A stretch of DNA of 64,000 nt from an uncultured Methanomicrobiaceae archaeon (GTDB lineage: Archaea > Halobacteriota > Methanomicrobia > Methanomicrobiales > Methanoculleaceae), in assembly GCA_963826525.1 (NCBI GenBank), contig CAWGXH010000003.1, forward strand, positions 224,001 through 288,000, given 5' to 3'. Shown here one piece after another: positions 8,070 through 47,909 of this stretch (its first letter is position 1; every line of letters begins with the position of its first letter). Position numbers and translations under genes: made by a program. The notes under the pieces are model-generated. The model made no database searches, was not told the DNA's origin, and saw only the letters and a program-made list of their open reading frames with translations.

Positions 8070-10694
8070 TCGGCAAGTTCGGCCTTTGGCAGCGTAAACC
8101 TTATCGCTGCTCCTTCGCTGGGAGAGCCCGGCACCCGGTCGTCCGCCCATATCCTTCCGCCGTAGCGTTCCACGAGGGCACGGCTGATATAGAGGCCGAG
8201 ACCCTTTCCGCTCTTTTTCCCCCGCTTTTGCGAAACCGGTAGAAGACCTCGGGTTTCAGGGGGTCGGGAATCCCGGGGCCGGTATCCTCCACCGATATCT
8301 CGACGTACCCGTCCGTATCCCGGGCGCCGATCGCGATAGCCACAGCCGGGCCGCCGAATTTGCGGCTGTTGCCGATGAGGTTGATGAAGACCTCGGGAAG
8401 GAGATTGTCGGCGAGCACGACCGCATCCGTCCCCGGGTAATGGACTTCCGCCTCTGGAAAGAGGTGAATCACCTCGCGGATAACGGTATCGAGCGTGGTC
8501 GGCGTTACGGCAGGTGCCTCCTCCTGCAGCCGCCGTATCGTCGAGACATTGCCGATGATCTCGATGCTCTGCCGGATGCCGGTGAGGAGTTTCTGCGCAA
8601 ACAACTTCTCATCCCCGGTGAGGATCTCTTCGAGGAGGGATGCGTACATCAGGGACGAGGTGTTGGCGTTGCTGATATCATGCGCCATCACGTCGAGGTA
8701 GAAGTTTGCCTGCTCGTTCGCCTCCTCGAGCCGGCGCTGGAGCATCAGCCGGTCGAGGGCTCTGCCCACCTCCCTGCCGATCGAGATGAGGATGCTTTTT
8801 TCCTCGTCTGTGAAGCGGTGCGGGCGCCTGCTGGTAAGGATCATAGCCCCGATACGGTCGCCGTCTGAGGTGAGGGGGATACGTGCAAGGGCACGGATCC
8901 CGGCACCTCCCGGATACCGGGACGGATAGTCTTCAGCGAAGCAGGGGCTCTCTCCCCCGAGGATACGGTCGTAGGGAGACTGATTGAGGCTGATCTCTCC
9001 CATATCGGGCATGAAACCCGGGGGGAGCCCTCGCCTGACAGCCGTTCTCGCCGTGCGGCCGGAAAGGTCGAAGAGGGAGATCGCTCCCCCCTCGAAGGCG
9101 ACGAGATCGAGCGTCCGGTCGAGAGCTCTCTGCATCAGATCGTCCGGGTCGGTCGAGGTGCTCGCGGCGCCGATCACCTGATTGATCGTATAGAGCTGCT
9201 TGTTACGCCTTTTTATCTTCTCTTCGGCGATTTTCCGCTCGCTGATATCGTTGAAGTAGAGGGAGAGCCCTCTGTTCCGGGGGAAGACCCTGACCTCGAA
9301 GTACCTGCCGTGCGAGGGGTCGAAGGTCTCGAAGGTGACGGGACGCTGCTCGTCGAGCACCCGGCGGAGGAGATCCTCAAAAGCGGTGCTCCCGGGTTCC
9401 GGAAAGACCTCGGTATACCGCTTTCCGATGAGTTCGTCACGCTGCACCCCGAGCAGCCGCCCGGCAGCCTCATTGGTATACGTGATGGTACGATCGCTGT
9501 CCATGGCGATGAAGGCGTCGCTGATACTCTCGAGGATCGTCTGAATCTGCGTCTTCGACTCGAGCAGCGCTGCCTCCGCCTCCTTCCTCTCGGTGATATC
9601 ATGGACGATGGAATGGAGGAGAGGCCGATTTTTCACGGTGATCGCCCCGCTGTACACCTCGACGTCCCTGACTTCGCCGTTCGCAAGCATGTGGCGGAAT
9701 ACGAAGTAGTTCCTGCGTTCGGCCAGTGCATGCTCCATCTCGGCTGCGACCTCACCCTCGTTCAGCGTATTGATCTCGGCGATCGTCATTCCGGTCAGGA
9801 CGTCGTGCGGATACCCGTAGAAACGTGATGCAGCGGGATTTGCGTCCACGATCTCGCCGGTGGCGGGATCGATGAGGAGCATGACGGCGAGGCTTTCGGT
9901 AAAGATATTTCGATACCGCTCTTCGCTCTCGCGGAGACTCTGTTCGGTCCGTATCCGTTCGACGACCCGGCCGAGCCGTCCGGCAACGGCGTCGATGAAC
10001 AATCGCTCCTCCTTCAGGAACGGCCCCACCCCTTCATCCTCCTCCGGATGTTCGCTCTGGTAGGAGACCTCAAGTCTCCCGACGGGTCTCCCGTGCACCC
10101 TGATACTGCTCGCTAAAAGCCAGGGCGTCGCGGTGAAAGCCTCGGTGCCGAACACGCGGCCGTCGAGAACGATCCGGACAACGGTATCCTTTGGGTACTG
10201 GAAGGCAGATAGGATGATGCTGAGCGCTTCCGAAAAGAGGTCCTCGAGCTGCAGCCCGGGGGTTTCGATGAGACGGGAGATGCCGTAGAGGCATGCAAGT
10301 TCCCGCTCCCGCTTCTGCAGGTTGCGCCGCTCAAGTGCGCAGCGGACTGCCTGCCGTATGAGGTCGGGGCCGAGCTGCTCTCGGGGAAGGTAATCCACGG
10401 CACCCTGCTCGAATGCCTGTAGTGCCGGCTCGTCGTCGGAGAGGATAATTATCGGTATGTCGCCGGCCTCCCGGTGCAGGCGGGTAAACGTCTCAAGCCC
10501 GCTGCTGTCGGAAAGTCCGAGGTCCAGGAGTATGATCGCGAACGTCCCGGCGGCAAGTGCGTCAAGCCCTTCCGAGAGACTACCGACGTGAACCGTTTCG
10601 AAACGGGGGAAGACCTCCTCGAGCAGTCTCCTGACGAGCCTTGCGTCTTTCGGGTTACCCTCGATGAGGAGGACCTTCTGTTTCATGTTCATGT
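8070..10694 (-). CDS. Hybrid sensor histidine kinase REC-GAF-like-PAS-PAS-GAF-HisKA-HATPase (frameshift near 8210)
   Basis: ORF 8101-10776; REC (LLDLGL), PAS motifs, H-box YLDVMAHDISN, N box NLIGNS, DTGPGIP; G2 box GLGLYI in the shifted frame. End approximate. Confidence 0.85.
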
Positions 10695-10851
10695 CTGGCA
10701 CACGACCGGGATCTTTCCTGCGTCCCATGCGTTCCTGCGCTCGGCAGAGCGCGGGCAGGCATACACCCTCTCTCAAGGGCGATGTGAGTATTAAGGATTA
10801 CCCTCTTTCGAAAGATACCCTGCGGGTCGCGGGAAAAAAGGTGTCCGGTCT

Positions 10852-21420: not shown

Positions 21421-24400
21421 TTACCTGTTGCCTTCCGCTCTCCATACCCCGGCAGGGGCGAAGATCTCGAATCTGGCCCCCCACCCGGCCCCGCCGTTCT
21501 CGGTGATGGTCATCCCGGTGATGGCGAGAATCCTGCGGATGAGAAACAGTCCAAGTCCCGTATTCCTGCCGATGCCGCGCTCGAATATCCGCTCTTTCTG
21601 GTCGTCCGGGATCCCGACCCCGTCATCTTCGTAGACGACGGTCAGGCCTTCCTCGTCTGCAACGGAGGAGATCCGGATCGCGGATACTCGCTCTCCGTGG
21701 CGGACGGAGTTGTCGACCAGGTTCTCAAGGGCCTTCACGAGCATCGGATCCGCATAGATCTCTCCGGGGGCGCATTCGACCGAGAAGGCGATCCCTTTTT
21801 GCACCTGCAGTTCCGTGGCAAGCACACGGAGATCCTGCCAGTACGGTTCGGTGGTGCCGAGGTCCTGGTAGACCCGGGAGAACTCTAACTGGGACTGTAT
21901 CTTCCAGGTTGCAGCCTCCAGTTTCTCAAGGTAGTAGGTAATAAGCGGGTCAGGTGAGACCTCCCGTGCAAGTTCGATATACCCGAGGATACCGGTCACC
22001 ATGTTGAGAATGTCGTGCCGGGTGATGCCGGAGAGAAGATTGAGTTTTTCGTTCGCAGCCCGGAGCGCCTCTTCCGCATGCTTGCGGTCGGTGACGTTGC
22101 GGAACGATAGCAGAAGTGCCGGTTCCCCCTCGTACACTATCTGCTTTCCTGTGCACTCCACGAAGACGCGGCAAGAATTCGGTGTCAGCAGGACGTATTC
22201 ACCATCGGAGACCTCGTTCCCGCGGGCGAGCTCTTCCAAGCTTCCGGGCGGCAGCCTCCCTCGATTCGGGGGCGATGAACTCCAGGACGCTCCTGCCGAT
22301 CGGGAGATCCTTCTCCCCGTACCCTGCGGTGGCTGCGGCCGCTCTGTTGGCAAGAAGGATGGTGCCTGTCCGGTCGAGAACAAGCGTGCCCTCGAGCGCA
22401 TGCTCGACCAGTGTGCGGGACTTCGCTTCGCTCTCCCGGAGCCGCTCCTCAATCTCTTTCTGCTCAGTAACGTCGTGGCCAACGGACTGGTATTCGATGA
22501 GCCTTCCGCTCAGATCGAAGATCGCCCGCCCGCTCCACCGGAGCCAACGGACGACGCCGTCCTCCTGGATAACGCGGTGCTCGTTCATCCCAGCCGGATG
22601 AGCCTTTGTGAGGGACGCGAAGAAGTCGCTGATCCCCTGCCGGTCTTCATCCGGGACAGCGGGGTAGAAACGCCTGCCGATCAGGGTCTCCCGCGAAAGA
22701 CCGAAGTAGCGCAGGAACGCCTCATTGACAAAGAGGAACACTCCGCCCGGCGTGAACCGGCAGATGAGTTCGGTCTGGCTCTCCACGACATCCCGGTAGC
22801 GCTCTTCACTCTCCCGGATTCTCCGGTGCGCTTCTGCGATCTCGTCCACCTGTTGGCGGAGTTCTTCTTCCACTGCTGCCAGGTGTTCGTTCGCCGCCAG
22901 AAGTTCCTCATTCGCCCGGAGGAGCGCCCGTTCCCCTGCTCGCTGTTCCGTAATGTCGCGGATAGACTCGATGGCACCGACGATCGCTCCGGTTCCATCG
23001 TAGAGCGGGGTCGCCGTAGCCCAGAGAACCACATTCTTTCCCTTCAGCCGGGCATTCTCCGTCTCGATTACGGCGCTCTGCCGGCTGTGGCTGATCCGGG
23101 AGTAATGCTCGCGCAGAGGCGCTTCGTCGCCCTCCAGTACAAGATCGATGAGAACCGGCCGCCGCTCCCCGTAAAAGAGGCGGGCGTACTCGTAATCTCC
23201 TTTACCGACGACCTCGGCCGACCCGATACCGGTCATCTCCTGAATTGCCCGGTTCCAGGCGATGACCTTCCCGTCGGCATCGATGACGAAGGTGGCATCG
23301 GGGAGGAACTCGATGATATCGGCAAGCCGGCGTTCGCTCTCCCGCAGATGCTCTCCGGTGGCGGCGAGGTCGTCGAAACTCGTCCGGAGTTCCTCTTCGA
23401 TCGCCGTGAGCTCCTCGTAGGCCGAGGCGAGTTCCTCGTGCTGCCGGGTGAGCATCATCTCCGCATCTTTCCTTCCGGTAATATCGAGCAGGGATGCGAT
23501 GCTCCTGCCGGTTCCGGGGAGGATCCCGATGGTCATGAGTATGTCGTGCACCGCTCCGTCTCTCGATACGAAACGGAACTCGTACTGCTGCACTGCCTTT
23601 GCCGGGGCGGATCTCCGAAGCCGGTGCTGCTCGAGCATCTGTTCGAGGTTGGCCGGGTCGATGAACTCGGTCCACTGCTTTTTCCCCTCGATCTCCTCCC
23701 GTGAATATCCTGATAGCCGGACGAACTCTGCGTTGACGAGGCTGATCGTCGTATCGTCCTCGACGGTGACGATAGCGGTGCCGGTGTTCTCAAACATCGT
23801 CCGGTACCGCTCTTCGCTCTCCCGGAGCGCTTCTTCCGCGAGCTTCCGGTCGGTGATATCCTGGCCCTGGGCAATGGTCGCGATGATCCGCGATCCGTCC
23901 CGGTCGAGGATGTTTGATGTGCTCCAGAGGATGGTTCTGATGCTGCCCGAGCGGTGGCGAATGGGGATCTCCACCGCTTCCAGCCGCTCACCCGTCAGGG
24001 TCATCCTGAACCGCGCCAAGGCGGTCTCGTGACGCTCGTCCGGAAAAAGGGCGGCGAGCGGGCTTCCGACAGCCTCGCCGACCGGTATGCCGGTCAGGTC
24101 TTCGGCGGCGCGGTTGAACCGGGTGATGACGAGTTCCGGGTTCCAGACGATGATCGGGGCGTTTGCGTATCCGATGAGGTTCTCGAGAAGATCGGTCTGT
24201 GCCGCAAGTTCCGTCTCCGCCCGTCGCGCCTTGACGGCCTGCCGCAGCTTATGCGCAAGTTCGGCAAACTGAGCCTTTGGGTCGCCCCCTTTCTGGAGGT
24301 AAAAATCGGTACCGCTGTTTAAGGCCTCGATCACGACCTCTTCCCGACCCTTGCCGGTGAATATGATGAACGGGACAGTGCAGCCCGACTGGCGGATCGT

Positions 24401-24622
24401 CTTGAGCAGCGTGATTCCGTCCATTTTCGGCATCTGGTAATCGGAGACGACAGCCTCGTAGCGTCCGGATGCCGCCTGCAGGGGAGCCTGCCTCGGATCC
24501 GCAAGTATATCGACGGAGAAGTCACCGGTGCGTTCGAGGAAGAGTTTGGTCACTTCGAGCAGCGCCGGTTCGTCGTCGACGTAGAGGATAGGGATGATCT
24601 CGGCACCTGCAGTATCGGGCAT
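21421..24622 (-). CDS. Hybrid histidine kinase REC-multi-PAS-HisKA-HATPase (frameshift near 22230)
   Basis: ORFs 22199-24622 + 21421-22482; YVDDEP...SDYQMP...QKG receiver, five PAS-like repeats, LLSGITRHDILN H-box, DDGVGIP, GLGLF. Confidence 0.88.
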
Positions 24623-24891
24623 GGCGGTCTCCAGTAATTAGAGACACTCTTTTCATTACTTAAGTGCTTCTATACGAGCCCCTGCGTGACGGTACCTCTT
24701 GCGAGGAATAACGCCCTCCGATGCGGGAACTGCCGCTCACCGGGGCCTTCGGGTGAGGTGTTTAATGAACAGCATCGGCGTACCGGCCCGGCTCTGGCAC
24801 CTGCTCCCTGCATATGCAGCTCTCTGTTCGTTTGCGAGGACGACCGAACCAAAGGGAAGAGTATTCGGCTCTCGAACGAGAGATGTACTTC

Positions 24892-30049: not shown

Positions 30050-32955
30050 TTATCTCTCAGCGAGCCCGAACTCTCCCGGAGCGTGAACCGGAACGCCGCC
30101 CCCTCCTCCGGCCTGCCCGGCACCCGGTCGTCGACCCAGACCTCTCCCGCCGTAGCGCTCGATGAGGGCCTACGATAAAGAGCCCGAGGCCTTCGCCCTT
30201 CCCCTTGGCTCTGCCCCGTTCGAACCGGCTGAAGATCGTCTCTTTCATCTCGTCCGGGACGCCCGGGCCGGTGTCCTCGACCGCGACCAGCACTTCACCG
30301 TCCTGCATCTCCACCTGGATGGCAATCTCCACATCAGGTCCCCCGTAATTGACGGCGTTGCCGATGAGGTTCGTGAAGATCATCGGTAACAGATTGTCCG
30401 CCAGCACCTCGACCGAAGGGTCCATGTACCGGATCGATGCCCCGGGGAAGTTTCCGATCTCCTCCTTAATGACGGCATCGAGGTTCACCGGCACCAGGCG
30501 GCCGGGTTCCTGCTGAATCCGCCGGATGGTGGCGACGTTTCGGAGAATCTCGCTGCTCCGCTCGATGCTGTCGTGCAGTTTTCGGGCGTAGAGCCACTGA
30601 TCGCCCGCAAGCAGTTCGACCAGGAGGTCGGCGTACATGCTCGAGACGTTGTTCGCGTTCCGGACATCGTGGGTCATGATATCGAGGTACAGGTGCGCCT
30701 CGTCGCGTGCTGCTACGACCTCTTCGCTCTTCCGGACGAGGTCATCGGTCCGACGCTGAAGTGCTTCTTCCGCCCTTTTGCGGTTGGTGATGTCGATGAA
30801 AACCCCTACCGCGCCATGGGATCTGCCGTTCTCATCAAGCAGCGGTACGGCATTGCCGAGCAGGTGCCGCAGCGTCCCGTCGCTGAAGACCAGATCGAAT
30901 TCGAACTGTTGTACCGGCCGGCCGGTTGCGGCGGCTCTCTGTAACGGAATTTCCTCCGGCGGGATCTCGGCGCCGTCTTTCATAATCCGGAAATGTGCCG
31001 GCCGCTCGCCTTCGGGTGCCGATTTTGAGAGGTTGCTTCCCGGTGGCATACGGAACAGGTCGTAGGTGCACCTGCTGCCGAAGATGGAGCGGCATTCGGG
31101 ATCGAGCGCGATGAAGACCGCGGCCGGCACCGCTTCCATGATCGCCTGCAGCTCCGCCGCCCGCTGCCGCTCCCGCTCCTCGCTCTCCCGGAGTGCCTCC
31201 TCGGCGAGTTTGGTCGTTGTCAGGTCCACGGCCGCGGACGCCACGCCGATGATCCGGCCGTCGCGGTCGCGGATCGGCTCCCAGATGATATCGAGATACA
31301 TCCGTCCGGTGGGCCGGTCGAGCCATATCTGCTCGCGCTGTTCGATGCCTTCTTCGAGCACGCGCCGCTCGATCGCCGTGAAATGCGCCGCCTCTTCGGC
31401 AGTGAAGATCTCGTGGTCGAGATGCCCGACGATCTGATCCGGTCCGCCGACCGCTGGTTGTACGCCCAAACGTAGCGCAGGTCGCGGTCCTGCGCCGCCA
31501 CAGACACCGGCGAGTTCCTTAGCGCCAGCCGGAAGCGCTCCTCGCTCTCGCGCATGGCCTCTTCGGCCTTTTTGCGCTCGGTGACGTCGCGGGCGTTCAC
31601 CACAAAACCCCGGACAGCCGCCTCTTCCAGGAGATTGACGCCGATTACATCAAAATACAGCCAGTCTCCCGAGTGGTGCCGCATCCGAACTTCGAGGGTG
31701 ACCCTCTTGTCCGGATGGGTGGCGGCAGTAGAGAGGGCGTCCATCACCAGCGGCAGATCGTCGGGGTGCGTCAGTCTGAGTATCGGCATTCCGGTGAGTT
31801 CTTCGGGTGCATACCCGCTGACCTGTTTCACCGAAGGGCTTGCATACACGATATGCCCCCCTGCATCGAGGACGACGACGACATCCGAGGCATTCTCGGT
31901 GAGCAGCCGGAACCGCGCCTCGCTCTCCCGGAGCGCCCTCTCCGCCGCGTTCACCTGGCGGGAGATATCGGTGACGGCAACCCGGAGCCGGGGCGTATCG
32001 CCGTCGGCGGCGCTCTTCCCCTCGAGCAGCGCCCAGGCGGGCTCGCCCCTCCGCCCGCTCCAGCCGGATGTCGCAGGCCTCGTTCATATCCGAGGACAAT
32101 CGCCCGGGCAAGGAACTCGTTGAACGTTTGAGACTCTCCCGCTCGAGGAAGAGCCCGAATCGGGCTCCGATAAGCCGCCCACGCTCCCTGCCGAGGAGTG
32201 ACGCCCCGGCAAGGTTCGCTTCCAGGATCTCCCCTCGCGCATCCAGCGTGAAGTAGCCGAGCGGTGCAAACTCGTAGAGGTCGCGGTACTTCTCTTCGGA
32301 GGCCTCGAGCGCAGTATACGCCCCACGGAGTTCCTCGTTCTGCGTTTCGAGTTCGACCCGGTGCTCCTCGAGTTCTTCATATGCTCTGTGCAGCGTCACT
32401 TCTGCGGATTTCCGCTCGGTCAGATCCATGGCAACCAGGGAAAATACCTGACATCCCGTCCATCGGCAGCAGCCGCAGGGAGAGGTACACCGGCACCAGG
32501 CCCCCCGCGTACGTCTGCAGCGTGCTCTCGCCCGTGCCGCCGGAAGGGTCTCCTGCCGTCATCATCCGCCGGAAGCTCCCCGCGGATGCAGGAGCGATGA
32601 AGGCATGGATCGACTCCCCCATCACCTTCTCGAGAGGCATCTGGAGCAGCCGGGCGAAACTTGCGTTGCTGTAGAGGATGGTGCCGTCCGTGGTGAGGAT
32701 CGCCGCTCCTTCCCGCATCTGCTCGATGAGCACGCGGTAGGGATGCTCGGCGGTCTTTAAGGTGTAGATCTTCTCCCCTTCGTCCGTGGAGACCAGGAAG
32801 GCATCGACCTCCCCCCGCCGGATCGCCGAAAGCGTCTCTTCCGCCTCGGCAAAGCCCCCGTAGAGCTCCTCGAGTACGCGGAGGAGTTCCTCTTTCGCGC
32901 GGCAGTCGGGGAGCGTTCGTATCGGATTGGTGCTCTGGAACCCTGCATCATGCAT
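30050..32955 (-). CDS. Kai-operon multi-PAS histidine kinase (split into 4+ pieces by indels)
   Basis: ORFs 32377-33012, 31650-32429, 31220-31954, 30057-31469; N-terminal EAEETLSAIRRGEVDAFLV...YTLKTAEHPYRVLIEQMREGA, five PAS-like domains, YLDIMTHDVRNANN, DTGPGVP, GEGLGLF. End approximate. Confidence 0.82.
30085..30790. repeat. Near-identical kinase transmitter cassette (also at 37762-38470; related at 49535-50150 and 54238-54880)
   Basis: Long identical DNA runs, e.g. about 30503-30720 vs 38183-38390. Confidence 0.85.
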
Positions 32956-32974
32956 CACCGATGGGGCGACCGGC

Positions 32975-33331
32975 TCACTTCCTCTTCTGGATGCCAAGCC
33001 CGATAAGGACACGGTCTTTATCCGACATATCCCCGATCAGCTTCCGGAGGGGCAGGGGCAGCTGCTTGATGAGCGTGGGGGCCGCGACGACCTGGGCTTC
33101 CTGCGCCCGCTCGGGCTGCTGGTAGACGTCGATCACCTCGAGGTCGTAGCGCCCCGCAAGGTGCGTCTCGCAGATCTCCTTGATGTTCTCGATCGCCTTC
33201 TGCGATCGGGGAGTCATTCCCGTGATGTAGAGCCGCAGGATGTAGCGGGCATCCGTCCTCTCCAGCGCCAGCTCGAACTCGTCCGTGGCCGAACGCGGCT
33301 CCTCTGCTTCCCTGGTATCTCCATCTTTCAT
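32975..33331 (-). CDS. kaiB: Circadian clock KaiB family protein (second copy)
   Basis: YILRLYITGMTPRSQKAIENI..CE.HL.GRYDLEVIDV...VVAAPTLIKQLPLPLRKLIGDMS. Confidence 0.93.
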   Translation of the reverse strand: MKDGDTREAEEPRSATDEFELALERTDARYILRLYITGMTPRSQKAIENIKEICETHLAGRYDLEVIDVYQQPERAQEAQVVAAPTLIKQLPLPLRKLIGDMSDKDRVLIGLGIQKRK

Positions 33332-33363
33332 TGTGTAAGCTCCTCGGGGGTATCTCCCGTATT

Positions 33364-33674
33364 TTACCCCTTCGGCCGGATGTCCAGCCCGACGAGGACC
33401 TTCTCCTCATCCGAGAGGTCGCCGATGATCTTGCGCAGGGGCGGAGGCAGCCTCCTGACCAGCGTGGGGATGGCAAAGATCTGGTCGCCCTTGGCGAGCT
33501 TCGGGTGCTCGAGGAGATCGATCACCTCGATCGTATACCTCCCGGCGAGGTGCTCCTCGCACATCCTCTTTAAGTTGGCGAATGCGGCGAGCGACTTCGG
33601 GGTCTGCCCGGCGACGTAGAGCCGCAGTATGTATACCTCTCCGTTCTCATCCGGTCTGTTCTTGTTTCGGTCAT
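33364..33674 (-). CDS. kaiB: Circadian clock KaiB family protein (first copy; frameshift near 33655)
   Basis: GGAGGAG RBS then ATG 33674; shifted frame [39 protein letters not shown]...[23 protein letters not shown]. Confidence 0.92.
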
Positions 33675-33724
33675 TGCTCCTCCCGGTGATCCCTGGTGAA
33701 GAAACCTGCTTATCATTATCGGGA

Positions 33725-35432
33725 TCATCGGATCTTGCGCAGTCTCTTGATCGTCCGCGTGTCCGCTTCGATCACGCTCTGCCGGCGGTTCTCCGCCTGG
33801 ATCTGTTTCAGGACAGTCTCCTCCTGCGAGGCGAACTCGCCCTGCAGGGCTGCGATCCGGGCCTCCATGACGCTCCGTTGCCGCTCGAGCTCGCGCTGCC
33901 GGAACGCGATCTCCTCTCGTCTGGGCCTCGGCCTCCGCCTGTTCCTTCGCTTCCTGGACGAACCGGGCGGTGCCGAGGAACATCCCGCCGGGCCCGACGT
34001 AGACGTCGGTGAGATCGATGCCGTCGTCCGTGATCCGGTATTCGCGGATCTGGTTGGAATGCCCCATCCCCCGGGACTTCAGCACGTAGAGCCCGCGGTT
34101 GCGCTCCCCGACGGACTCGATATTCTGCAGCTGGATCAGGGTATCGATGAGCGAGGAGACGGCAAGGTCCGAGGGGGCTACCGCCTCCCGCGTGCGGATC
34201 AGGTGGGTGAAGAGCGCGGTGATCCCGTTCATCTTCAGGAAGTCGATCAGCCGCGTGAGCATGACCTTGACATCCCGCGTGCTCCCGATCGCGATGAGAT
34301 CGGTCAGGGGGTCGATCACGACGACCGCGGGCTGTTTCTGTCGGATCTCCTTGAGCATCATCACGAGGTGCATCTCGAGGCCGAACATCGTCGGCCGGGA
34401 GGAGCTGATCTCGAGAAGGCCGCTCTCGATGTGGGGCGCAAGGTCGATGCCGATCGACTGCATGTTGCGCACGATCTGGTTGGGAGACTCCTCGAAGGAG
34501 AAGTAGAGGCACTTTTCTCCCCGGAGGCAGGCGGCATGCATGAAGCTCGCCCCGAAACTGGTCTTGCCGGTGCCGGGCGTCCCCGTAATCATGATCGTGC
34601 TGCCGCGGTAGAATCCCTCTCCCTCGAGCATGGCATCGAGGCGCTCGACGCCGCTCGAGACCCGTTCATCGGTGACAGTGTGCGTCAGGGCCGTCGAGGT
34701 GATCGGCAGCACGGAGATCCCGGTCTCGTCGATCAGGAAGGGATACTCGTTGGTGCCGTGGACCGAACCGCGGTACTTCACCACCCGCAGGCGGCGCGTG
34801 GAGATCTGCTCGTCCACCCGGTGGTCGAGGAGGATCACGCAGTCCGAGATGTACTCCTCGAGGCCGTGGCGGGTCATGGTCGTATCGCCGCTCTCCCCGG
34901 TGACGACCGCGGTAACGCCTTTCTCCTTCAGCCAGAAGAAGAGCCGCCGGAGTTCGGCGCGAAGAATGCCGGTATTCGCAAGACCCGAGAAGAGCGACTC
35001 GATGGTGTCGAGGACGACTCTTTTCGCGCCGATGGAATCGATGGCGTAGGCGAGCCGGATGAAGAGCCCGTCGAGATCGAACTCCCCCGTCTCGATGATG
35101 TCGCTCCTCGATATCTCTACGTGGTCGATCGAGAGCAGATTCCTCTCCATGAGATCGGTCAGGTCGTAGCCGAGCGACGCGACGTTCTGGACGAGGTCCT
35201 CGGCCGACTCCTCGAAGGAGACGACGACGCCGGGTTCCCCGTACTCCAGCGCGCCGTGGATCAGAAACTCCATCCCGAGCAGGGTCTTGCCGGACCCCGC
35301 CCTCCCGACGACGAGGGTCGTACGCCCTCTCGGCAGACCGCCCCAGGTGACCTCGTCGAGACCCTGAATTCCTGTCGGACTTTTCGGCAACTCGATACGG
35401 GTCGATCTCCCTGGTTCTTCTCTGTCGTGCAT
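33725..35432 (-). CDS. kaiC: Circadian clock protein KaiC, double-domain, with C-terminal coiled coil (frameshift near 33920)
   Basis: Two Walker A motifs ([16 protein letters not shown]), FEES in both rings, [20 protein letters not shown] phospho-site, KYRG/KSRG fingers; corrected tail [27 protein letters not shown]...KRLRKIR*. Confidence 0.95.
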
Positions 35433-35851
35433 ATAAATCAGCAGTAAAAACCTATTGGATTTAACGGGCAATAAAACCCTCGTGAAGGCAAAGGCCGCGT
35501 CCCGGACGTTCTACGGACGTGCATGACGGGCTCCTATCCGGTGGTTACCACCTCTCCCGACGGGAGAGGGTATCCCGTCCCCGGGTATGCCCGATCCTTT
35601 TCCCTGCTTCGGCGGGGCGTGGGTGTTCCATACATATACGCTTTTCCGCCCGGTCTGCCGGGGGACGATTCTTTTACTGCAGGGCCGTGAGAAGGGGATG
35701 CCGGAGATGGGTCCCCTCTACGAATGATCTCTCTCCCGTGCATCTCCGACCCGTCCGGCACCTGGAGACGTGATAGCAGTGCGGTTCCCGCCGCTTCACG
35801 AGGCGGGGCAGCCGTCAATTTCCGGCCGGCCTCGAAGGTGAGATCGCCGGT

Positions 35852-37537
35852 TCAGGCGGCTCGTCTCTCCGGATTACCGTCCGCTGCTCTCTGGAGCGTG
35901 AACCGGAACGCCGCGCCTTCCTCCTGGTGACCCGGCACCCGGTCGTCGACCCAGATCGTTCCGCCGTAGCGCTCGACGAGGATCTGCACGAGGTACAGCC
36001 CGAGCCCTTCGCCGACGCCCCGCTTCTGCTGCTCGTACCGGTGGAAGATCGCATCCTTCTCAGCGTCCGGAACGCCGGGGCCGGTGTCCTCGACCGAGAC
36101 CCGGACGAACCCGTCTTCTTCTTCCACCCGGACGGCAACCTCGACATCGGGGCCGCCGTGCTTCACGGCGTTGCCGATAAGGTTGTCGAAGACCACGGAG
36201 AGGTAATCGTCTGTAAGGACCATATGGTGCGCCCCTTCGTAGCGGAGGGTGCTTCTGGATTCGCTCCCAATCATCCCCCTGATTGCCGCATCGAGATCCA
36301 CCGGTTTGAGCCTGGACGGTGCCCAATGGATCCGCCGGATGGTGGCGACGGTTCGGAGGATCTCGATGCTCTTTTGGACGCTGCGCTGCAATTTCTTCGC
36401 GTATCCGACTTCATCCCCCCTCCCCTGCAGGGACTCGATGAGCAGGTCGGCGTAGAGGTTCGAGACGTTCTCGGTGTTGCCGATATCGTGGGTGAGGATG
36501 TCGAGGTAGAGGTTTGCCTCCCGGTGAGCGCACGTAAGATCCCGGTTCAGACGGGCGAGCTCGTCGGTATGGCGCCGGAACGCTTCTTCGGCACGCTTGC
36601 GCTCGGTGATATCCTGGGTTATCCCGAAACCTCCAAGCAGCCCGCCGGCATCGTCAAACTCCAGGTACGCCTTCTCCCGCACCCATTTTACACGCCCGTC
36701 CACCAGAATGCGGTGCTCGATGTCGTAGGGCTCGCCGCAGAGTCCTGCCTTCCACCGGGTGTCTACATACTCCCGGTCATCGGGGTGGACGATCCCGAGG
36801 AAGGTCTCGTAGGTCAGCGGCGTCCCTCCGGGCACCCCGAAGATGCGGTAATTCTCGTCCGACCAGGTCAGGACGTTCCGGTCGATATCCAGCCGCCAGC
36901 TCCCGATCTGGCCGACAGTCTGGGCGTGGTCGAGGTCTTCCCGGCTCCGGCGCAGCGCCTCTTCTGCACGCTTCTGCTCGGTGATCTCCTCGGCAACGAT
37001 GCTGATCGCTATGATGTGCCCATGAGTATCCGTTACCGGCCACCAGGATTCACGCCAGTACCGAAGCACCCCGGGCTCAGCCGGTGTCTCCCCCCGGCTC
37101 TCGATATTGAGCACGGGTTTCCCCGTCTCAACAATCGTTCGGACGAGTTCTTCAGCCGCCTCTGCAAGATCCGGAACCAGCTCGCGGACGGTCTTACCGA
37201 GATGCTCCTCGATGGAGAACCTGTCCATCTCCGCAAACTGTCTGTTGACGTGCTGGTACCGGGTGTCCGTGCCAAGGAGACAGAGCCCGATCGGCGCCGA
37301 GGTATAGGCCGCCTCGATCTCAGCGAGCTGAGCATGCGCCTTCGCCTCGCTCTCCTGCAGGATTCTCTCAGCCCGGCGAAGCTCTGCATTCTCCCGCCGG
37401 AGTGCGTCGATCTCTTTCTGGAATTCTTTCACCCGCTCACGGACAAGCCGTTCTCCTTCGGTAGGAATATCCGGTATCTCCTCGTCGCTTCGAGCGGGTT
37501 CGGTCTTTTTCCGGGTGGTTCCTGGAGGCGTGGACAT
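35852..37537 (-). CDS. PAS-PAS histidine kinase
   Basis: Intact 561 aa; YLDILTHDIGN, NLIGNA, DTGPGVP, GEGLGLY. Confidence 0.92.
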   Translation of the reverse strand: MSTPPGTTRKKTEPARSDEEIPDIPTEGERLVRERVKEFQKEIDALRRENAELRRAERILQESEAKAHAQLAEIEAAYTSAPIGLCLLGTDTRYQHVNRQFAEMDRFSIEEHLGKTVRELVPDLAEAAEELVRTIVETGKPVLNIESRGETPAEPGVLRYWRESWWPVTDTHGHIIAISIVAEEITEQKRAEEALRRSREDLDHAQTVGQIGSWRLDIDRNVLTWSDENYRIFGVPGGTPLTYETFLGIVHPDDREYVDTRWKAGLCGEPYDIEHRILVDGRVKWVREKAYLEFDDAGGLLGGFGITQDITERKRAEEAFRRHTDELARLNRDLTCAHREANLYLDILTHDIGNTENVSNLYADLLIESLQGRGDEVGYAKKLQRSVQKSIEILRTVATIRRIHWAPSRLKPVDLDAAIRGMIGSESRSTLRYEGAHHMVLTDDYLSVVFDNLIGNAVKHGGPDVEVAVRVEEEDGFVRVSVEDTGPGVPDAEKDAIFHRYEQQKRGVGEGLGLYLVQILVERYGGTIWVDDRVPGHQEEGAAFRFTLQRAADGNPERRAA

Positions 37538-37726
37538 CTGAATCAGGGACTCCTTTCAAGAAAACGCCAATACGTTTCCCATCGTTGGTAATAGCGATGC
37601 TGAGAATGTGCGAAGTACGGATGGTCCTGTGCGGTGACAAGAGACATTTTGATGCATATGAATATCTTGGTCGGCAGAGAGAGTCGTGTTGCATCGGCCG
37701 GTGCCAGACTCGTTCATGGAGATCTC

Positions 37727-39340
37727 TCAGCTGTTTTGCCCGACCTTCCTGAGCCTGAATCTGAACGCCGCTCCCTCCTCCGGCCTGCCCGGCACCCGGT
37801 CGTCGACCCAGACCCTCCCGCCGTAGCGCTCGACGAGGGTACGGGTGAGGAAGAGCCCGAGCCCCTCGCCCCTCCCTTTGGCTCTGCCCCGTTCGAACCG
37901 GGTGAAGAGCAGCTCCTTCACTTCGTCCGGCACACCCGGGCCGGTGTCCTCGACCGAGATCAGCACTTCACCGTCCTGCATCTCCATCCGGATGGTAATC
38001 TCTACCTCAGCACCGCCGTACTTGACGGCGTTGCCGATGAGGTTCGTGAAGATTACCGGCAGAAGATTGTCCGCCAGCACCTCGACCGGCGAGCCGTCAT
38101 AGCAGATCGATGCTCCGGGGAAGTTTCCGATCTCCCCCCTGATGACCGCATCGAGGTTCACCGGCACCAGGTGGCCGGGTTCCTGCTGAATCCGCCGGAT
38201 GGTGGCGACGTTTCGGAGAATCTCGCTGCTCCGCTCGATGCTGTCGTGCAGTTTTCGGGCGTAGAGCCACTGATCGCCCGCAAGCAGTTCGACCAGGAGG
38301 TCGGCGTACATGCTCGAGACGTTGTTCGCGTTCCGGACGTCGTGGGTCATGATATCGAGGTACAGGTGCGCCTCGTCGCGTGCTGCTACGACTTCTTCGC
38401 TCTTCCGGGCGAGGTCGTCGGTGCGGCGCTGAAGTGCTTCTCCCGCCCTTTTGCGCTCGGTGATGTCGTTGTTGATCTCCATGACCGCGACCGGTTCCCC
38501 ATGCTCGTTCCGCTGCAGTGCCCAGCGGCTTGCCACCACGATCCGCCTGCCGTTCCGTGTGATCTGGACAAGCTCGCCTTCCCATCGCCCTATCCTATGG
38601 AGCTCTGCGCGAATCGCATCAGGTGGTTCCGGGAACGTCGTCTTCAGCAGTTCGGGCGCTTCTTTCCCCACCGCCTCCGCTGCCGACCACCCGTACTGCT
38701 CCTCCGCACCGCCGTTCCAGAAGGCGATCCGGTTGTCCATGTCAAGAACCATGATGGCATCGTGCGTGAGGTCGAGGAGCGCAGCCCGGGCTTGTGCGGC
38801 CTCTTCCGCCTGTTTCCTCCCGGTAATGTCGATCAGGGCGGCCTGGAACGTCGGCTCCTCTCCGGCCTTCGCCTCGACCAGCACCCAGGCGGACTCGTGT
38901 TCCCGCGTTGCCCGAAGCCGCACCTCGACCGTCTCTTTCCCGCCCTCCGCCCGCACCAGGTCACGGAATGCGGTGAAGTCCCGGATGCTCTCCCGCTCGA
39001 GGAAGAACTGGAGCTTCTGATTCGTGAGGGACGCCCGGGATTCCCCGAGCAGTGAAGCGGCCGCCAGGTTTGCTTCAAGGATCCGCCCGCCCGCATCCAG
39101 GGTGACGTAGCCGATGGGGGCGAAGTCGTAGAGGTCGCGGTACTTCTCCTCGGAGATCAGCAGGTCGTGCTGCAGCTCCTGCAGCGCCTCGTTCTGGAGC
39201 TCGAGCTCGACCTGGTGCACCTCGAGCTCGTGGCAGAGCCTCCGCACGTCCTGCTCCGGAAGGTGCCCGGCACGTCCCGTCTCTCGAACTTCGTCTTCGG
39301 CACGCCGCCGGAGGTTCGGGTCAGGTTTTCTGTCCTGCAT
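37727..39340 (-). CDS. PAS-PAS histidine kinase of the type typically encoded after CheB-CheR fusions
   Basis: N-terminal LRRRAE...HELEVHQVELELQNEAL..EKYRDLYDFAPIGY; H-box YLDIMTHDVRN; 10 bp after the CheBR stop. Confidence 0.92.
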   Translation of the reverse strand: MQDRKPDPNLRRRAEDEVRETGRAGHLPEQDVRRLCHELEVHQVELELQNEALQELQHDLLISEEKYRDLYDFAPIGYVTLDAGGRILEANLAAASLLGESRASLTNQKLQFFLERESIRDFTAFRDLVRAEGGKETVEVRLRATREHESAWVLVEAKAGEEPTFQAALIDITGRKQAEEAAQARAALLDLTHDAIMVLDMDNRIAFWNGGAEEQYGWSAAEAVGKEAPELLKTTFPEPPDAIRAELHRIGRWEGELVQITRNGRRIVVASRWALQRNEHGEPVAVMEINNDITERKRAGEALQRRTDDLARKSEEVVAARDEAHLYLDIMTHDVRNANNVSSMYADLLVELLAGDQWLYARKLHDSIERSSEILRNVATIRRIQQEPGHLVPVNLDAVIRGEIGNFPGASICYDGSPVEVLADNLLPVIFTNLIGNAVKYGGAEVEITIRMEMQDGEVLISVEDTGPGVPDEVKELLFTRFERGRAKGRGEGLGLFLTRTLVERYGGRVWVDDRVPGRPEEGAAFRFRLRKVGQNS

Positions 39341-39350
39341 GATTGCCAGC

Positions 39351-42324
39351 TCAGTCGGGGGTGGTCTCTACGCGGGTCTCGCCGTGTTCCGCTTCCGATC
39401 GCCCGGTGACGTCTTCGATGGCGAGCAGGATCAGGTCGGCCCCTGTCTCCGACGCGATCCGCCGTGCGTTGAGGCGCATCTTCTTCTGCCCGATCTCCGG
39501 GAAGTCGTGCTCCATCTCGAACCCTTCAAACTGCTTTTCCTTGGGGAGGATCTCCTCAAGGAGTTCATGCAGTCGTGGGATATCCCACTGCCGGTTGCCA
39601 AGGTTGAAGATCACATTTCCTTCGGTTCCCTGCGGGGTGACCCGAAACGTCCGGTAAAACGAATTATTCGCCGAGATGACTGTAAAATCGCTGTTCAGCA
39701 CGACGAGCGGCTCCCTGATGGCCTCAACGATATTCTCGGCGTAGATGCGGGCTTCTGTGAGCTGCGTTTCGAGTTCCTTGATCGATGTGATCTCCGCGAA
39801 TGTGGCGACGATACCGTCGATACGGTCATTCGATGTCCGGTAGGGGAGGATGCGCATCTGGTACCACTTCCCTTCCGTGGTTCGCACCTGCTTCTCCACG
39901 GAGTTGAGTGTCTCGAGTGCCCTCCTGGCATCCTCGACGAACGTCCCGTCCTGTATGTTGATGACCAGATCGGCGACCGGCCTGCCGAGGTCGGTCGACC
40001 GCAGGTTGATGATCTCTTTGACGGGCTCGGTGAACCGGCGCACCTGGAGGTTTCTGTCCAGGAAGAGCATGGCAAGCTCGGAGCTCCGGAGAAGGTTCCG
40101 CATATCGTCGGTGGTGCTGGAGAGCTCGTCGATCTTGGCCTGGAGTTCGGTGTTCACCGTGAGGAGCTCCTCGTTGAGCGACTGCAGTTCCTCTTTTGAG
40201 GTGGTCAGCTCCTCGTTGGTGCTCTGCAGTTCTTCGTTGGTGCTCTGCAGCTCCTCGTTCATCGTCTTCTGCTCCTCCTGCGAGGCCTGCATCTCTTCGA
40301 CCGTGTTCTGGAGCTGCGATCTGGCATAGGTGAGCTCCGCGTTCAAGTTCGCGGTACCGGGCGTCGTCCTGCCGCTCACCCGTCTCTTCGGCTGCCTGTG
40401 GTGTCTCCGTCTCCTCGATATCCTCAAAAGCGATCATGAAGAGGTCTTCCGCTCCGGGAGAGCGTTCGATCGGTGCGACCGTCAGGCGTATCTGCTGGGT
40501 GCTGCCGTTTGTCTTCACGGAGACGTGTTCGATGACGCTCTCTCTCTTCTCCCGCTTTGCGGAACGGAGGGATGCGACCAGCGGATAACTGAGCCCCTCC
40601 CGGGCCATTGCATAGATGTTCAGGTTCGCTTTGCCCGAAGACGGTTCCAGGTACTTCCCGGTTTTGCCGTGGAAGTATGCGATGTCTCCGTTCTCGTTGA
40701 CGATGACCGAAGGAGGGACAAACCGGTTGATCAGTATCCGGGGTGCGAGTTCTTCGATGGAAGCGGGATGCCTCTGCTCGCGAATGCCGGTGCCGCCGAC
40801 TGAATGCGGGGCGAAGGAGACAGGGATATCGATCCGGTCGATGACGGGGGCGGACGTCTCCCGCCGCCGGTAGATCTTCCACCTGCTGTCCACAGTCCTG
40901 AAAAGTTCGCCGTAGCTGCCGATCGTCTCCGCCGTCCCGAGGAAGAGCGTTCCGCCGGGCTTGAGCGTGTAGTGGAAGAGGGGAATGAGCTTCTTCTGCA
41001 GCTCCGGCGCGAGGTAAATGAGCAGGTTTCTGCAGGAGAGGATGTCGAGGTGTGTGAATGGGGGGTCGGCGATGAGGTTCTGCCGGGCGAAGATGACGTT
41101 CTCGCGGATCTCCTGGCGGATCCGATAGTGGTCGCCCTCGTTGTCGAAGAACCTTTCCAGGCGTTTTGGGGATACGTCCGCCGCGATGGCGGCGATATAC
41201 CTCCCCCGCCGGGCGATCTCGATGGCCTCCTGGTCAAGGTCGGTTGCGAAGATCTGGTACTTGACCTCGCCGTGGCGGTTCAGGGTCTCCAGGCACTCGT
41301 GCAGCACCATTGCTATGGAGTAGGCCTCCTCGCCGGTCGAACATCCCGGCACCCAGACCCGGATCACACCCCCCTCCGGCGCGCTCTCGGCGATGCTGCG
41401 GATCGCTTTCTCCCGGAAGGCCTCCCATGCCTCGGGGTCGCGGAAGAACCGGGTTACGCCGATGAGCAGCTCCTTTGCAATGATCTCGATCTCGGTGGGG
41501 TTCTCCCGGAGGTACCTGACGTAGTCCTCGATCCGGGTCAACTGGTGCAGTCCCATGCGGCGTTCGATCCGCCGCTGGATCGTGCTCCGCTTGTACATCG
41601 AGAAGTCCTGGCCGGTCCGTGACCGGATGATGACGAAGACCTTCTTCAAACTGTCTTCCATCGTTTTCGTCGAGACCCCCGGTCTCCCGGCGATGGTATC
41701 GGCGGAATGGACGAATTTAATGAGCAGATCGGGGAGTTCCTCTACCGGCGCGGCGTAGTCGGCAAGCCCGGTGGCGATGGCGTTCTCCGGCATACTCCCG
41801 TACTGTGCGGAGTGGGGTTCCTGTACCAGCACGGTTCCCATCCGTTCTTTGATAGCCCGGATGCCCAGGGTGCCGTCGTGACCCATCCCGGAGAGAACAA
41901 TGCCGACGGCTTTGCCGTCCTGGTCATCGGCAAGGTGGCGAAAGAAGAGGTCGATAGGTGTCCGACTCGTCCGTGTTGCCACCGGTTCCAGGAGGGTGAG
42001 GCTGCCGTGCAGGATGGCGAGGTCGGCGTTCGCCGGTTTGACGTAGACGGAGTTCGGCCTGACCGCCATGCCGTCTTCGGCCCAGATCACCGGCATTTCA
42101 GTGGCCCGCTGGATGAGCTCCGGGAGCATGCCTTTGTGCTCCGGATCCATGTGCGTGACCAGCACGAATGCCATCCCTGTATCCGGCGGCATATGGGTGA
42201 AAAACTGTTCGAGCGCCTGCAGCCCTCCTGCGGAAGCCCCGATCCCGACGATGGCGCGGGGCGCCGCTTCGTCGGGCAGGCCTTCGGATGCGTGCGTATT
42301 TGTGCTCTCCGTATTCTGCGTCAT
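39351..42324 (-). CDS. CheB methylesterase-CheR methyltransferase-coiled-coil-PAS fusion (frameshift near 40340)
   Basis: ORFs 39826-42324 + 39351-40427; CheB triad GASAGG/THMDP/SGMGHDG; CheR WVPGCSTGEEAYS, ATDLD, SCRNLLIY; EELQSTNEELQSTNEEL heptads; PAS domains. Confidence 0.92.
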
Positions 42325-42596
42325 CGATCGTCCCCTAAAAAAATCCGCCGAAGGTTTCTATCCCTTCGCCCTCCACCGTCGCCGGTGGGCGAGGGTGGTG
42401 CCGGGTTGGTATATATGTCAAGAGTAGGTGGCCGATGCTTCATTAACTCTTCGTTCGCGCCGCACCTCTTCCCCGAAATGCGGATGGCCGAAACAGCATC
42501 CGTTTCGGGAAGGAGAAACGAGAACCGGTCACCACCCGCCGCGTGGGTGAACGCCACCCAAAGCGTTTTAACTTCTACAGAGGCAATATGTCTCCT

Positions 42597-45791: not shown

Positions 45792-47651
45792 TTATCCTTT
45801 GCGAACCCGGTACATCCCCTTCGGCACCCGGATCTCGAACGTTGCGCCTTTCCTCGGGATGCCGGTCTCAGTGATCTCAATGCCCGTGATCGACAGGATC
45901 TCCCGTGAGAGGAAAAGGCCAAGCCCCGTGTTCTTCCCAAACCCCTTGGTGAATAATCTTTTCTTGTCTTCAGCGGAGATGCCCACCCCGTTATCCTCGA
46001 ACGTGATCGTCAGGGCGTCATCCTCTTCGCGGGAGCCGACCGAGATCGCAGTCATCCCATCGCCCCCATACCGGAGGGCATTATCGAGAAGATTATAGAA
46101 TACCTTTTGAAAGAGTGGGTCTGCGTACACTTCGCAATCGGTGCGGTCGATCGTCACGCAAACCCCCTGTAACGGCAGACCGGCCGCTGCCTGGAGGAGG
46201 CTTTCACTGACATTCTGCCATTTGGGGGCATGGTTCCCGAGCTCCTGATACTCCCGGGTGAATTCTATCTGCCGCTGAATTGTCCTTGCGGCCTGCAATT
46301 CACGCTCAATGAATACTCGCCGCCCCGGATCGGTCTCATCGTCAAGGGCTATTTCAAGGCTTCCGAGCAGCACCATCAGTTGATTGAGGATGTCGTGCCG
46401 GGTGATATTCGACAAAAGGCCGAATTTCCTGTTGGCGAGGGCAAGGGTGTCTTCCGTACGCTTAAGGTCGGTGATATCCGTCACAAAGAGCAGTACTCCC
46501 GTGACCTTTCCGTTTTTATTCTTCAAGGGCACCTTGTCGGTCCGCACCCAGAGCGTCTCCCCGCCGGCTGTCTGCATCTGCTCGATAATACCGATCTTCG
46601 GCTCTCCGGAACGGATGACCTCGAGATCATCCCGGTAATACTTCTCCGCCGTCTCGGGAAACAGGTCGTCGGCGCTCTTTCCCTCGATCTCTCCGATTGA
46701 GAGCCCGAACGCATGCGCTGCAGCCGGGTTGACCCGGATGAATGTATTGTTCAGGTCCTTATACCAGATCATTGCAGGAGCGTGATCGATGATCTCCGAC
46801 AGGTCTTCGGAAAGCGTATGGAGTTCTTCCTGTTTCTGCTTCAGCTCCCGGAAGAGGAGGTCGAACGGGCGTCTCAGGCCGACTACCACGAACGCCCGGT
46901 AGAACAGGTAGACTGAGACGAGCCGGAACAGGTGTCCCAGCATGTTCATAAACCCGTATACGCTGACATACGAAGTAAATGACAGTTCTCCGAGGATAAG
47001 GAAGATCAGGGCGGCGATCACCAGTTTCCAGACGCGTCCTTCAAACGACTGCCGTTTCAGGACGAGAACGACAACCGATGCGAACAGGATAAGCGAGATG
47101 ACGTACTCGCTGACGATCTTAAACGGAGTGAGCCCGCTCCCTTCGATGAAGCTGGAGGGGAACGTATGCCAGAGAAATATACTCGCCAGAAGCAGTCCGC
47201 AGGCAGTCGCACAGGCGGTAACAATAATTGCGGTATCATATCTCCGGTCCCTGGTGAGAGTTCTCCCGATAAAGAGCGTGGCGACGAAGAACGTTACGCT
47301 CTGGAAGTACCGGGCTGCTATCCAGAGCTGGGTGGGAAGGTCGGGACTGTTTCCAGGGAAGACCCCCATTCCTTTATAGGCAAGCGTATGGATCAGGTCG
47401 AGACCGCCGATAAAGAGGAAGGAGATGCCGAGGATGAGGAAGAACGTATTCGTGACGGCTCGCCGGGTATTCCAGACCAGGATAAATATTGAGAATGCGA
47501 CGGCTATACCGGCAAATTCTACAATGCTGTGAAAGAGGAGGTAGTTCCGGAGGCTTATCAGGTACAGAGCGAACAGGATCGCGGCGCCGATCACGACCTG
47601 AATTATCAGGGAGGCCTGCTGGTTCGCAATGCGGTGGTTACGTGCATTCAT
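45792..47651 (-). CDS. Membrane MASE3-PAS histidine kinase
   Basis: YLLFHSIVEF, DLIHTLAYKGMGVF, TQLWIAARY, GLTPFKI.SEY (MASE3); ITRHDILN H-box; NTGLGLF. Confidence 0.92.
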   Translation of the reverse strand: MNARNHRIANQQASLIIQVVIGAAILFALYLISLRNYLLFHSIVEFAGIAVAFSIFILVWNTRRAVTNTFFLILGISFLFIGGLDLIHTLAYKGMGVFPGNSPDLPTQLWIAARYFQSVTFFVATLFIGRTLTRDRRYDTAIIVTACATACGLLLASIFLWHTFPSSFIEGSGLTPFKIVSEYVISLILFASVVVLVLKRQSFEGRVWKLVIAALIFLILGELSFTSYVSVYGFMNMLGHLFRLVSVYLFYRAFVVVGLRRPFDLLFRELKQKQEELHTLSEDLSEIIDHAPAMIWYKDLNNTFIRVNPAAAHAFGLSIGEIEGKSADDLFPETAEKYYRDDLEVIRSGEPKIGIIEQMQTAGGETLWVRTDKVPLKNKNGKVTGVLLFVTDITDLKRTEDTLALANRKFGLLSNITRHDILNQLMVLLGSLEIALDDETDPGRRVFIERELQAARTIQRQIEFTREYQELGNHAPKWQNVSESLLQAAAGLPLQGVCVTIDRTDCEVYADPLFQKVFYNLLDNALRYGGDGMTAISVGSREEDDALTITFEDNGVGISAEDKKRLFTKGFGKNTGLGLFLSREILSITGIEITETGIPRKGATFEIRVPKGMYRVRKG

Positions 47652-47909
47652 TGGGGGGCTCGCGACTCCTCAAAACGCAGGAATGTGTGTATGCCTGTTC
47701 ATTTGCTTGCGATCCCGCCAGGAGAGCAGATACCGGATTGATCCGGTATAGGCGGGACTATCGGATAGTCACTGGTTGAAAGCGTGAGGCGATAAGTTTT
47801 GTGTGTATGCAGGATTACCGGACGTCAGGAGGAGCAGATCTACGAACGGAGCGATCAGAGTGGGGCGTTTTCGTTCAGGCGGTGCCTCGGGGTGCCCCCC
47901 GCCGACCGG

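Follow-up and report, generated by a model that had tools for sequence, protein, structure and literature searches.

Lineage-specific juxtaposition of a kaiC-kaiB-kaiB-kinase cassette and a CheB-CheR cassette in a methanogen genome

The stretch of DNA analyzed here, referred to throughout as the window, comprises 64,000 nucleotides (C3:224001-288000) from the genome of an uncultured Methanomicrobiaceae archaeon (G000), an assembly of 3.06 Mb in 16 contigs with an estimated completeness of 87.6% and contamination of 5.3%. On the minus strand of the window, running from position 42324 to 30055, are seven co-oriented genes that encode a CheB-CheR-coiled-coil-PAS protein, two histidine kinases (HK1 and HK2), KaiC, two KaiB proteins and a third histidine kinase (HK3). 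Translations of the open reading frames (ORFs) and Pfam domains agree with this order, which had been given in a preliminary description of the locus, and the peptide strings quoted there for the kinases are found in the translations. That description went on to propose that the Kai timer and the CheB-CheR methylation module are wired together both physically and modularly. On the evidence presented below, we consider it fairly probable that these are instead two independent, separately conserved cassettes that came to lie side by side through a lineage-specific insertion of 7 kb into a kinase-dense island.

At the head of the Kai cassette is kaiC (33725-35432), encoding a double-domain protein of approximately 568 residues in which PF06745 matches two stretches (E 2.2e-113) and each half contains a Walker A motif (GSGKT and GTGKT). 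KaiC passes NCBIfam NF006799, the model for the circadian clock protein KaiC, with 715 bits against a cut-off of 408, and fails TIGR02655, the model for the cyanobacterial type, with 343 bits against a cut-off of 546. The closest solved KaiC chains are 8db3, 8dba and 8fwi (603 bits), compared with approximately 316-322 bits for cyanobacterial KaiC, and the SS pair at query residues 426-427, which we take to be the CII phosphorylation site, aligns with the SS of 8db3 and 8dba. Past the second domain is a C-terminal extension of approximately 63 residues that matches no solved KaiC in sequence and resembles designed coiled coils only weakly (E no better than 0.025). Adjoining kaiC are kaiB1 (33364-33675), whose frame is broken, and kaiB2 (32975-33331), which is intact at 118 residues. 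Both match PF07689 (E 3.6e-20 and 4.7e-27), both are nearest to the solved chain 8fwj_M, and both score just under the cut-off of 110 for the corresponding NCBIfam equivalog (102.8 and 96.8 bits). The cassette is completed by the multi-PAS kinase HK3 (30055-32955). Consistent with the preliminary description, a search of the genome, 87.6% complete as it is, gave no match for kaiA.

This arrangement recurs well beyond the window. The closest named record for KaiC is that of Methanoculleus frigidifontis, with 86% identity, and the segment containing kaiC, both kaiB genes and the first PAS domain of the kinase is 82-85% identical at the nucleotide level in six relatives (G001, G002, G004, G009, G011 and G018). 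Among 80 metagenomic kaiC loci (869 kb in all, with a median of 8.4 kb), kaiC is followed by KaiB1-like genes in 71 and by KaiB2-like genes in 51. The same pattern is seen in 27 genomic loci, and kaiC followed by kaiB recurs in bacteria as well as archaea. A kaiC-kaiB-kaiB-PAS-kinase cassette without KaiA is a known kind. According to one published report (PMC5520375), few archaeal genera possess KaiB, and those that do always carry it together with a KaiC2-like protein.

Farther upstream on the same strand is the CheB-CheR gene (39351-42324), split as assembled into two ORFs (39826-42324 and 39351-40427). Its product contains the Pfam domains CheB_methylest (residues 26-200), CheR_N (226-276) and CheR (290-483), without a match to Response_reg; C-terminal to these are a coiled coil, PAS_10 and then PAS_4, with which the protein terminates. 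The kinase is encoded not in the same protein but by the next gene. Six consecutive heptads of the coil carry EE or EQ pairs, and the E/Q/S/N columns are invariant across 13 orthologs. The strict chemoreceptor methylation consensus matches only the two methyl-accepting chemotaxis proteins (MCPs) of the genome, with no match in the coil or in the kinases. Judged by its domains, the protein fits the MAC1 (methyl-accepting coiled-coil) class, albeit one without a kinase domain.

The next gene encodes HK1 (37727-39340), an intact kinase of 537 residues in which a helix-PAS module at the N terminus (38783-39340) precedes a PAS domain and the transmitter. It starts approximately 10 nt past the CheB-CheR stop codon, as does its counterpart in G016, and a kinase with the same helix motif directly follows CheB-CheR in 7 of 11 archaeal loci belonging to three families. 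The association extends to bacteria, where the module lies directly downstream of CheB-CheR in G569, in G746 and in three places of G673, and where CheB-CheR-PAS_10-PAS_4 is fused to a kinase in single proteins of 1512 and 1636 residues. With the 186-residue HK1 module as query, a match was found in six of seven relatives that possess CheB-CheR (G016, G018, G095, G090, G021 and G024, the exception being G015) and in none of eight relatives that lack it (G001, G007, G009, G010, G011, G013, G014 and G017; Fisher p 0.0014). A profile of the module likewise gave a strong full-length match in all five bacterial genomes with CheB-CheR, compared with one of five without a CheB-CheR match. On this distribution, the helix-PAS module is a mark of kinases that partner CheB-CheR. 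As the HK1 helix lacks an EE pair, it looks like a docking element rather than a methyl acceptor. HK1 also holds a PAS domain that is missing from its orthologs, and PAS domains have clearly been shuffled among paralogs in this genome. As a separate observation, the kinase encoded immediately before kaiC in a Methanoculleus metagenome-assembled genome (MAG; L027:6752) is 71% identical over 127 residues to the one that immediately precedes CheB-CheR in G090 (L055:12958).

Features of HK1 recur in HK3. Spread over five frame segments, HK3 matches only PAS families and HATPase_c in Pfam, with no KaiB-like N-terminal domain. It begins with a PAS domain that is specific to the cassette and unique in the genome (32449-32955), continues with an inserted segment of 1.08 kb (31203-32353) that has a copy of the helix-PAS module at its start (31913-32375, the helix motif beginning at 32363), then with further PAS domains, and ends with the transmitter (30055-30836). 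The modules of HK1 and HK3 are 57% identical over 96 residues (E 6e-31), and the transmitters are 82% identical over 222 residues and 89.4% identical over 755 nt (30052-30798 and 37722-38471). The homology between the two kinases that was noted previously is therefore real, and the transmitters are similar, not near-identical as had been stated. The inserted segment is missing from the orthologs in G001, G002, G004, G009 and G011. Elsewhere in the genome its best matches, two stand-alone paralogs, reach 81-82% nucleotide identity at most, and HK1 reaches 71%; with no closer copy in the genome, the segment is not a pasted paralog.

The distribution of the module near kaiC is narrow. A strict version of the helix motif occurs four times in the whole genome and is found neither in 107 other kaiC loci (1.27 Mb) nor in 200 kb of G001, and a looser version detects module-like kinases beside kaiC in L027 and L033. 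In L033, which derives from a Chlorobiaceae MAG, the helix-PAS-type kinase (L033:6024-6971) lies on the opposite strand, approximately 3 kb from kaiC on its upstream side. In a tree of modules, that of HK3 groups with the two stand-alone paralogs, and this clade is sister to one formed by HK1 and the CheB-CheR-adjacent modules of G016, G018 and G095 (support 100/99). The Kai-linked kinases of G024 (L136:3950-6086) and of the related record L020 (L020:8917-11002) carry the module variant of the G024 lineage (support 98/98); their copies are 73% identical to each other, and identity to the module next to the CheB-CheR of G024 itself (L137) is 62% over 126 residues. The proximity of the HK3 module to the two paralogs rather than to HK1 had led us to consider that it is not specific to CheB-CheR, an idea that was overturned by the finding that the whole module family tracks CheB-CheR. 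Modular wiring, as the preliminary description had it, thus stands only in part: the shared module marks CheB-CheR partners, is rare near kaiC, and has been gained twice by Kai-linked kinases.

Physical linkage fared less well. We scored KaiC and CheB-CheR as linked if they lie within 10 kb of each other. Among 121 genomes of the window's order, 23 have CheB-CheR, 22 have KaiC and 12 have both, of which one, the genome studied here, shows linkage. Extending the survey to 401 genomes of the phylum gives 48 with CheB-CheR (36 of them full fusions), 27 with KaiC and 13 with KaiC and a full fusion, and the linked genome is again this one alone. For the 12 unlinked genomes of the phylum, the two systems share a contig in five, at distances of 417 kb to 1.2 Mb, and are on different contigs in seven. 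In a bacterial phylum (that of G464; 401 genomes), CheB-CheR is present in 64, KaiC in 35 and both in 17, none of which is linked, although several of these assemblies are too fragmented to exclude adjacency; in one of its members, G550, the two lie 41 kb apart (C3:110153-154312). Neither is CheB-CheR found in any of the 27 genomic kaiC loci. Kai loci and CheB-CheR fusions each occur separately, as had been stated, and each is conserved on its own. A conserved linkage is not supported and fails by the refuting condition that the preliminary description itself had set, and the adjacency is a lineage-specific juxtaposition.

Comparison with G001 indicates how that juxtaposition is laid out. In G001, in which no CheB-CheR fusion was found, kaiC is directly beside glnA, and the approximately 98 bp between them are represented in the window by 7,068 bp (35491-42558) that contain HK2, HK1 and CheB-CheR. 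Homology to G001 resumes on both sides, at 35490 and 42559. We looked for direct or inverted repeats of at least 10 nt at the borders and found none, and with terminal repeats of that length lacking we set aside a mobile element as the source of the insertion. Approximately 58 nt upstream of kaiC are kept relative to G001, within a gap of 419 nt between the HK2 stop and the kaiC start. What lies upstream of kaiC varies among relatives: G001 has glnA there, G018 has a divergent kinase, and M. frigidifontis has a PAS-MCP/CheW/receiver trio plus MntP. With the last of these, the group shows a second, different chemotaxis-type neighbor of a Kai cassette: in the record of M. frigidifontis (L019:5678-9000), a PAS-HAMP-MCP, CheW and a single-domain receiver are located just upstream of kaiC-kaiB-kaiB-kinase, with one oppositely oriented MntP gene between the trio and the cassette.

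Four of the seven genes are interrupted by a total of seven frameshifts in the 12.3 kb of the locus. Compared with G016, a 1-nt insertion near 40340 splits CheB-CheR into the two ORFs, and its counterparts in relatives have open frames of 975-1070 residues. Relative to six relatives, kaiC has a frame-shifting 1-nt insertion near 33919, and kaiB1 has a 4-nt gap near 33664 by which its frame is lost approximately four codons past the ATG. The remaining four are in HK3, and HK1, HK2 and kaiB2 are intact. As a control, we took 116 ORFs of at least 200 residues from 200 kb of G001, of which 89 have an ortholog in the window's genome covering at least 70%. Of these G001-intact genes, 26 are frameshifted in the window's genome (32 frameshifts in 98.4 kb, or 0.33 per kb), including ones with 97-99% protein identity to G001. 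At that rate 4.0 frameshifts are expected in the locus, and by our own estimate the probability of at least seven is approximately 0.11; the computed probabilities are 0.05 for at least eight and 0.008 for at least ten. Given this comparable breakage across genes that are intact in G001, the seven frameshifts of the locus are most likely errors of assembly or sequencing, and such frameshifts probably also explain the completeness figure of 87.6%. Three further indels suggested at the N terminus of HK3 by DNA alignment (32969, 32940 and 32897) were rejected because the G001 ortholog can be aligned in a single frame starting with residue 1, at 86% identity. Short, low-depth read contigs of related organisms, one of which lacks the base at 32897, decide neither the frameshifts nor the joins. 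Within the HK3 module (32050-32130), approximately 11 residues differ from both paralogs before the sequence returns to register, which looks like a compensated pair of indels.

These data bear on whether the locus is what it seems. One reading is that the mosaic structure of HK3 and the juxtaposition itself are assembly chimeras among paralogous kinases, or that the frameshifted genes are real pseudogenes. The seven frameshifts, four of them in HK3, the probable compensated indel pair in its module, the incompleteness and contamination of the assembly, and the many paralogous transmitters in the genome (68-89% identity) would all suit such an explanation. However, the frameshift rate is a property of the genome as a whole, both borders of the insertion lie in unique intergenic DNA with G001 synteny resuming on each side, and no other copy in the genome comes closer than 81-82% identity to the HK3 insert. 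Together these rule against misassembly as the main reading, and HK1, HK2 and kaiB2 are intact; we therefore judge an artifact or decay to be improbable. What weighs on the other side, and against the reading that we prefer, is that the four frameshifts of HK3 fall within 2.9 kb, a density that exceeds the genome mean, and real decay of this one gene is conceivable.

A stronger challenge to two independent cassettes is that the coupling is real. In this case a MAC1-type CheB-CheR would feed the Kai output kinase, HK3 would join a PAS domain for timer input to a module for methylation-state input, one transmitter would integrate the two, and the insertion beside kaiC would reflect selection for co-inheritance or co-regulation. 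We find both the coupling and the selection doubtful, though they draw on a body of evidence that counts against our own preference. The module tracks CheB-CheR in archaea and bacteria alike, its strict helix motif is present in 7 of 11 CheB-CheR loci and absent from the 107 other kaiC loci, and Kai-linked kinases in G000 and in G024/L020 carry the module variant of their own lineage, a pattern of two independent gains. Set against these gains is the absence of the module from the Kai-linked kinases of the other five of seven lineages (G018, G021, G096, G032 and the G002/L019 lineage), and if 6% of kinases carry the module, its presence in at least two of seven would occur by chance with p of approximately 0.06. 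The HK3 module is moreover nearest to the two stand-alone paralogs (81-82% nucleotide identity) and not to HK1 (71%). For the transmitters the case is different: those of HK1 and HK3 share 89.4% nucleotide identity, whereas HK3 and its ortholog in G001 share 84.7%, a relationship suggestive of gene conversion between HK1 and HK3.

Metagenomic loci also lend the coupling some weight. A receiver-less CheB or CheB-CheR gene is found within a few kb of kaiC in 4 of the 80 loci, for which the Poisson probability is approximately 8e-5 if there is one copy per 4 Mb, whereas queries for MCP, CheW and canonical CheR each found none in the 80. The four cases are a CheB-CheR fusion (L130), two genes cut by contig ends (L056 and L091) and a stand-alone CheB (L128), and they are inconsistent in orientation, distance and intervening genes. 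Co-occurrence of KaiC and CheB-CheR in the same genome is above expectation, with odds ratios of 9.6, 14 (the window's phylum) and 6.4 (the phylum of G464) that are confounded by kinship and genome size and are weak within one family (p 0.053). Against the coupling, adjacency was seen in no other genome examined that has both systems, and the window is a kinase island, containing 10 of the 70 HATPase_c matches of the genome in 64 kb, in a genome in which PAS domains are shuffled among paralogs. In such an island a kinase is expected to adjoin any given gene. Our search of the literature found no published link between Kai and CheB-CheR fusions.

Two further proposals bear on the coupling. In one, which has in its favor the domain-level evidence from two lineages and a loose but recurring neighborhood, a Kai output kinase would have recruited the module of CheB-CheR partners, making cross-talk possible; we hold this reading to be rather unlikely. 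In the other, MAC1 CheB-CheR and KaiA-less KaiBC would be coupled in a subset of prokaryotes through kinases that join the Kai-cassette PAS to the helix-PAS module, a generalization that we think unlikely. The integrators would then be HK3 and the Kai-linked kinases of G024 and L020, and it is equally unlikely that through them a reversible methylation state gates or tunes what the timer puts out. The timer-plus-memory circuit of the preliminary description is one that the gene content can only suggest.

Returning to two independent cassettes, each would operate on its own. By analogy with its family, the first would be a KaiA-less kaiC-kaiB-kaiB-PAS-kinase timer in which KaiC autophosphorylates, KaiB binds KaiC, and HK3 reads the state of the Kai proteins through its cassette-specific N-terminal PAS domain. 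The second would be a split MAC1-type system in which the EE-heptad coil of CheB-CheR is probably methylated and demethylated by the enzyme itself, subject to control by its PAS domains. CheB-CheR would probably hand the methylation state to HK1, which it would recognize through the N-terminal helix-PAS module. Each cassette would keep a separate upstream region, and adjacency would not be needed for function. As HK3 acquired a copy of the partner module, CheB-CheR might nevertheless exert some influence on the Kai output kinase here. If CheB-CheR does recognize kinases through the helix-PAS module, the locus names concrete partners and provides a natural case of a Kai output kinase carrying that module. 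If it does not, the locus represents ordinary cassette shuffling in a kinase-rich methanogen genome, and a warning about reading gene neighborhoods in error-rich assemblies.

The remainder of the window provides the setting for these genes. HK2 (35852-37537), an intact PAS_4-PAS_3 histidine kinase of 561 residues, is outside both conserved cassettes, and its nearest paralog is at C3:533436-534524 (84% nucleotide identity). Among the other kinases of the island are a MASE3-PAS kinase (45795-47669) and two hybrids that combine a receiver with multiple PAS domains, at 8104-10797 and, interrupted by a frameshift, at 21424-24637. The reported lack of chemotaxis genes is borne out for MCP and CheW, neither of which occurs within the window, and for CheA, which is not found nearby; canonical CheR is also missing from the window. 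For cheY the matter is less clear cut, as no search was aimed at it and the two hybrid kinases do carry receiver domains. Two canonical chemotaxis clusters (MCP, CheW and CheR) are located on the same contig (C3:333500-335800 and C3:521800-527900), separated from the locus by approximately 68 kb and 255 kb, so the CheB-CheR fusion is not the only methylation system of the genome.

To our knowledge, neither the Kai system nor the MAC1 CheB-CheR system has a known function in archaea, and we know of no output pathway for Kai systems outside cyanobacteria. The two cassettes can be set beside their closest known counterparts. MAC1 systems are credited to Wuichet and Zhulin (2010) in a preprint (bioRxiv 10.1101/2022.05.07.491037), which describes MAC proteins as being without experimental characterization in any respect. 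The protein described here is alike in joining CheB and CheR to PAS domains and a coiled coil rich in glutamate, and in having no receiver domain and no chemotaxis neighbors. It differs in that the kinase is separate, being encoded by the next gene, HK1, with its N-terminal helix-PAS module; in bacteria, fusions with the kinase are also found.

CheB-CheR shares its catalytic domains with the CheR and CheB that act on chemoreceptors during chemotaxis adaptation, and EE pairs recur in heptad register along its coil. In contrast to chemotaxis adaptation, CheB here has no receiver, MCP, CheA and CheW are not nearby (the nearest MCP and CheW being approximately 68 kb away), and the coil does not match the strict receptor methylation consensus. 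The Kai cassette resembles the cyanobacterial KaiABC system with SasA and CikA in that the Kai proteins have a histidine kinase encoded alongside them or reading them. Unlike that system, no KaiA was found, KaiC is below the TIGR02655 cut-off (343 versus 546 bits), and HK3 has PAS domains in place of the KaiB-like, thioredoxin-fold N-terminal domain of a SasA-type kinase.

The nearest counterpart of the Kai cassette is the KaiA-independent KaiBC timer of purple bacteria. The two are alike in the closest KaiC and KaiB structures (8DB3 and 8DBA for KaiC, 8FWI and 8FWJ for KaiC-KaiB, which we take to be Rhodobacter sphaeroides entries), in the SS pair, in having no KaiA that could be found, in the order of kaiC then kaiB with a PAS kinase, and in KaiC having a C-terminal extension. 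They differ in that the host here is an archaeon, that there are two kaiB genes, that the 63-residue tail has no sequence match to a solved chain, and that the kinase carries in addition a module otherwise typical of CheB-CheR partners.

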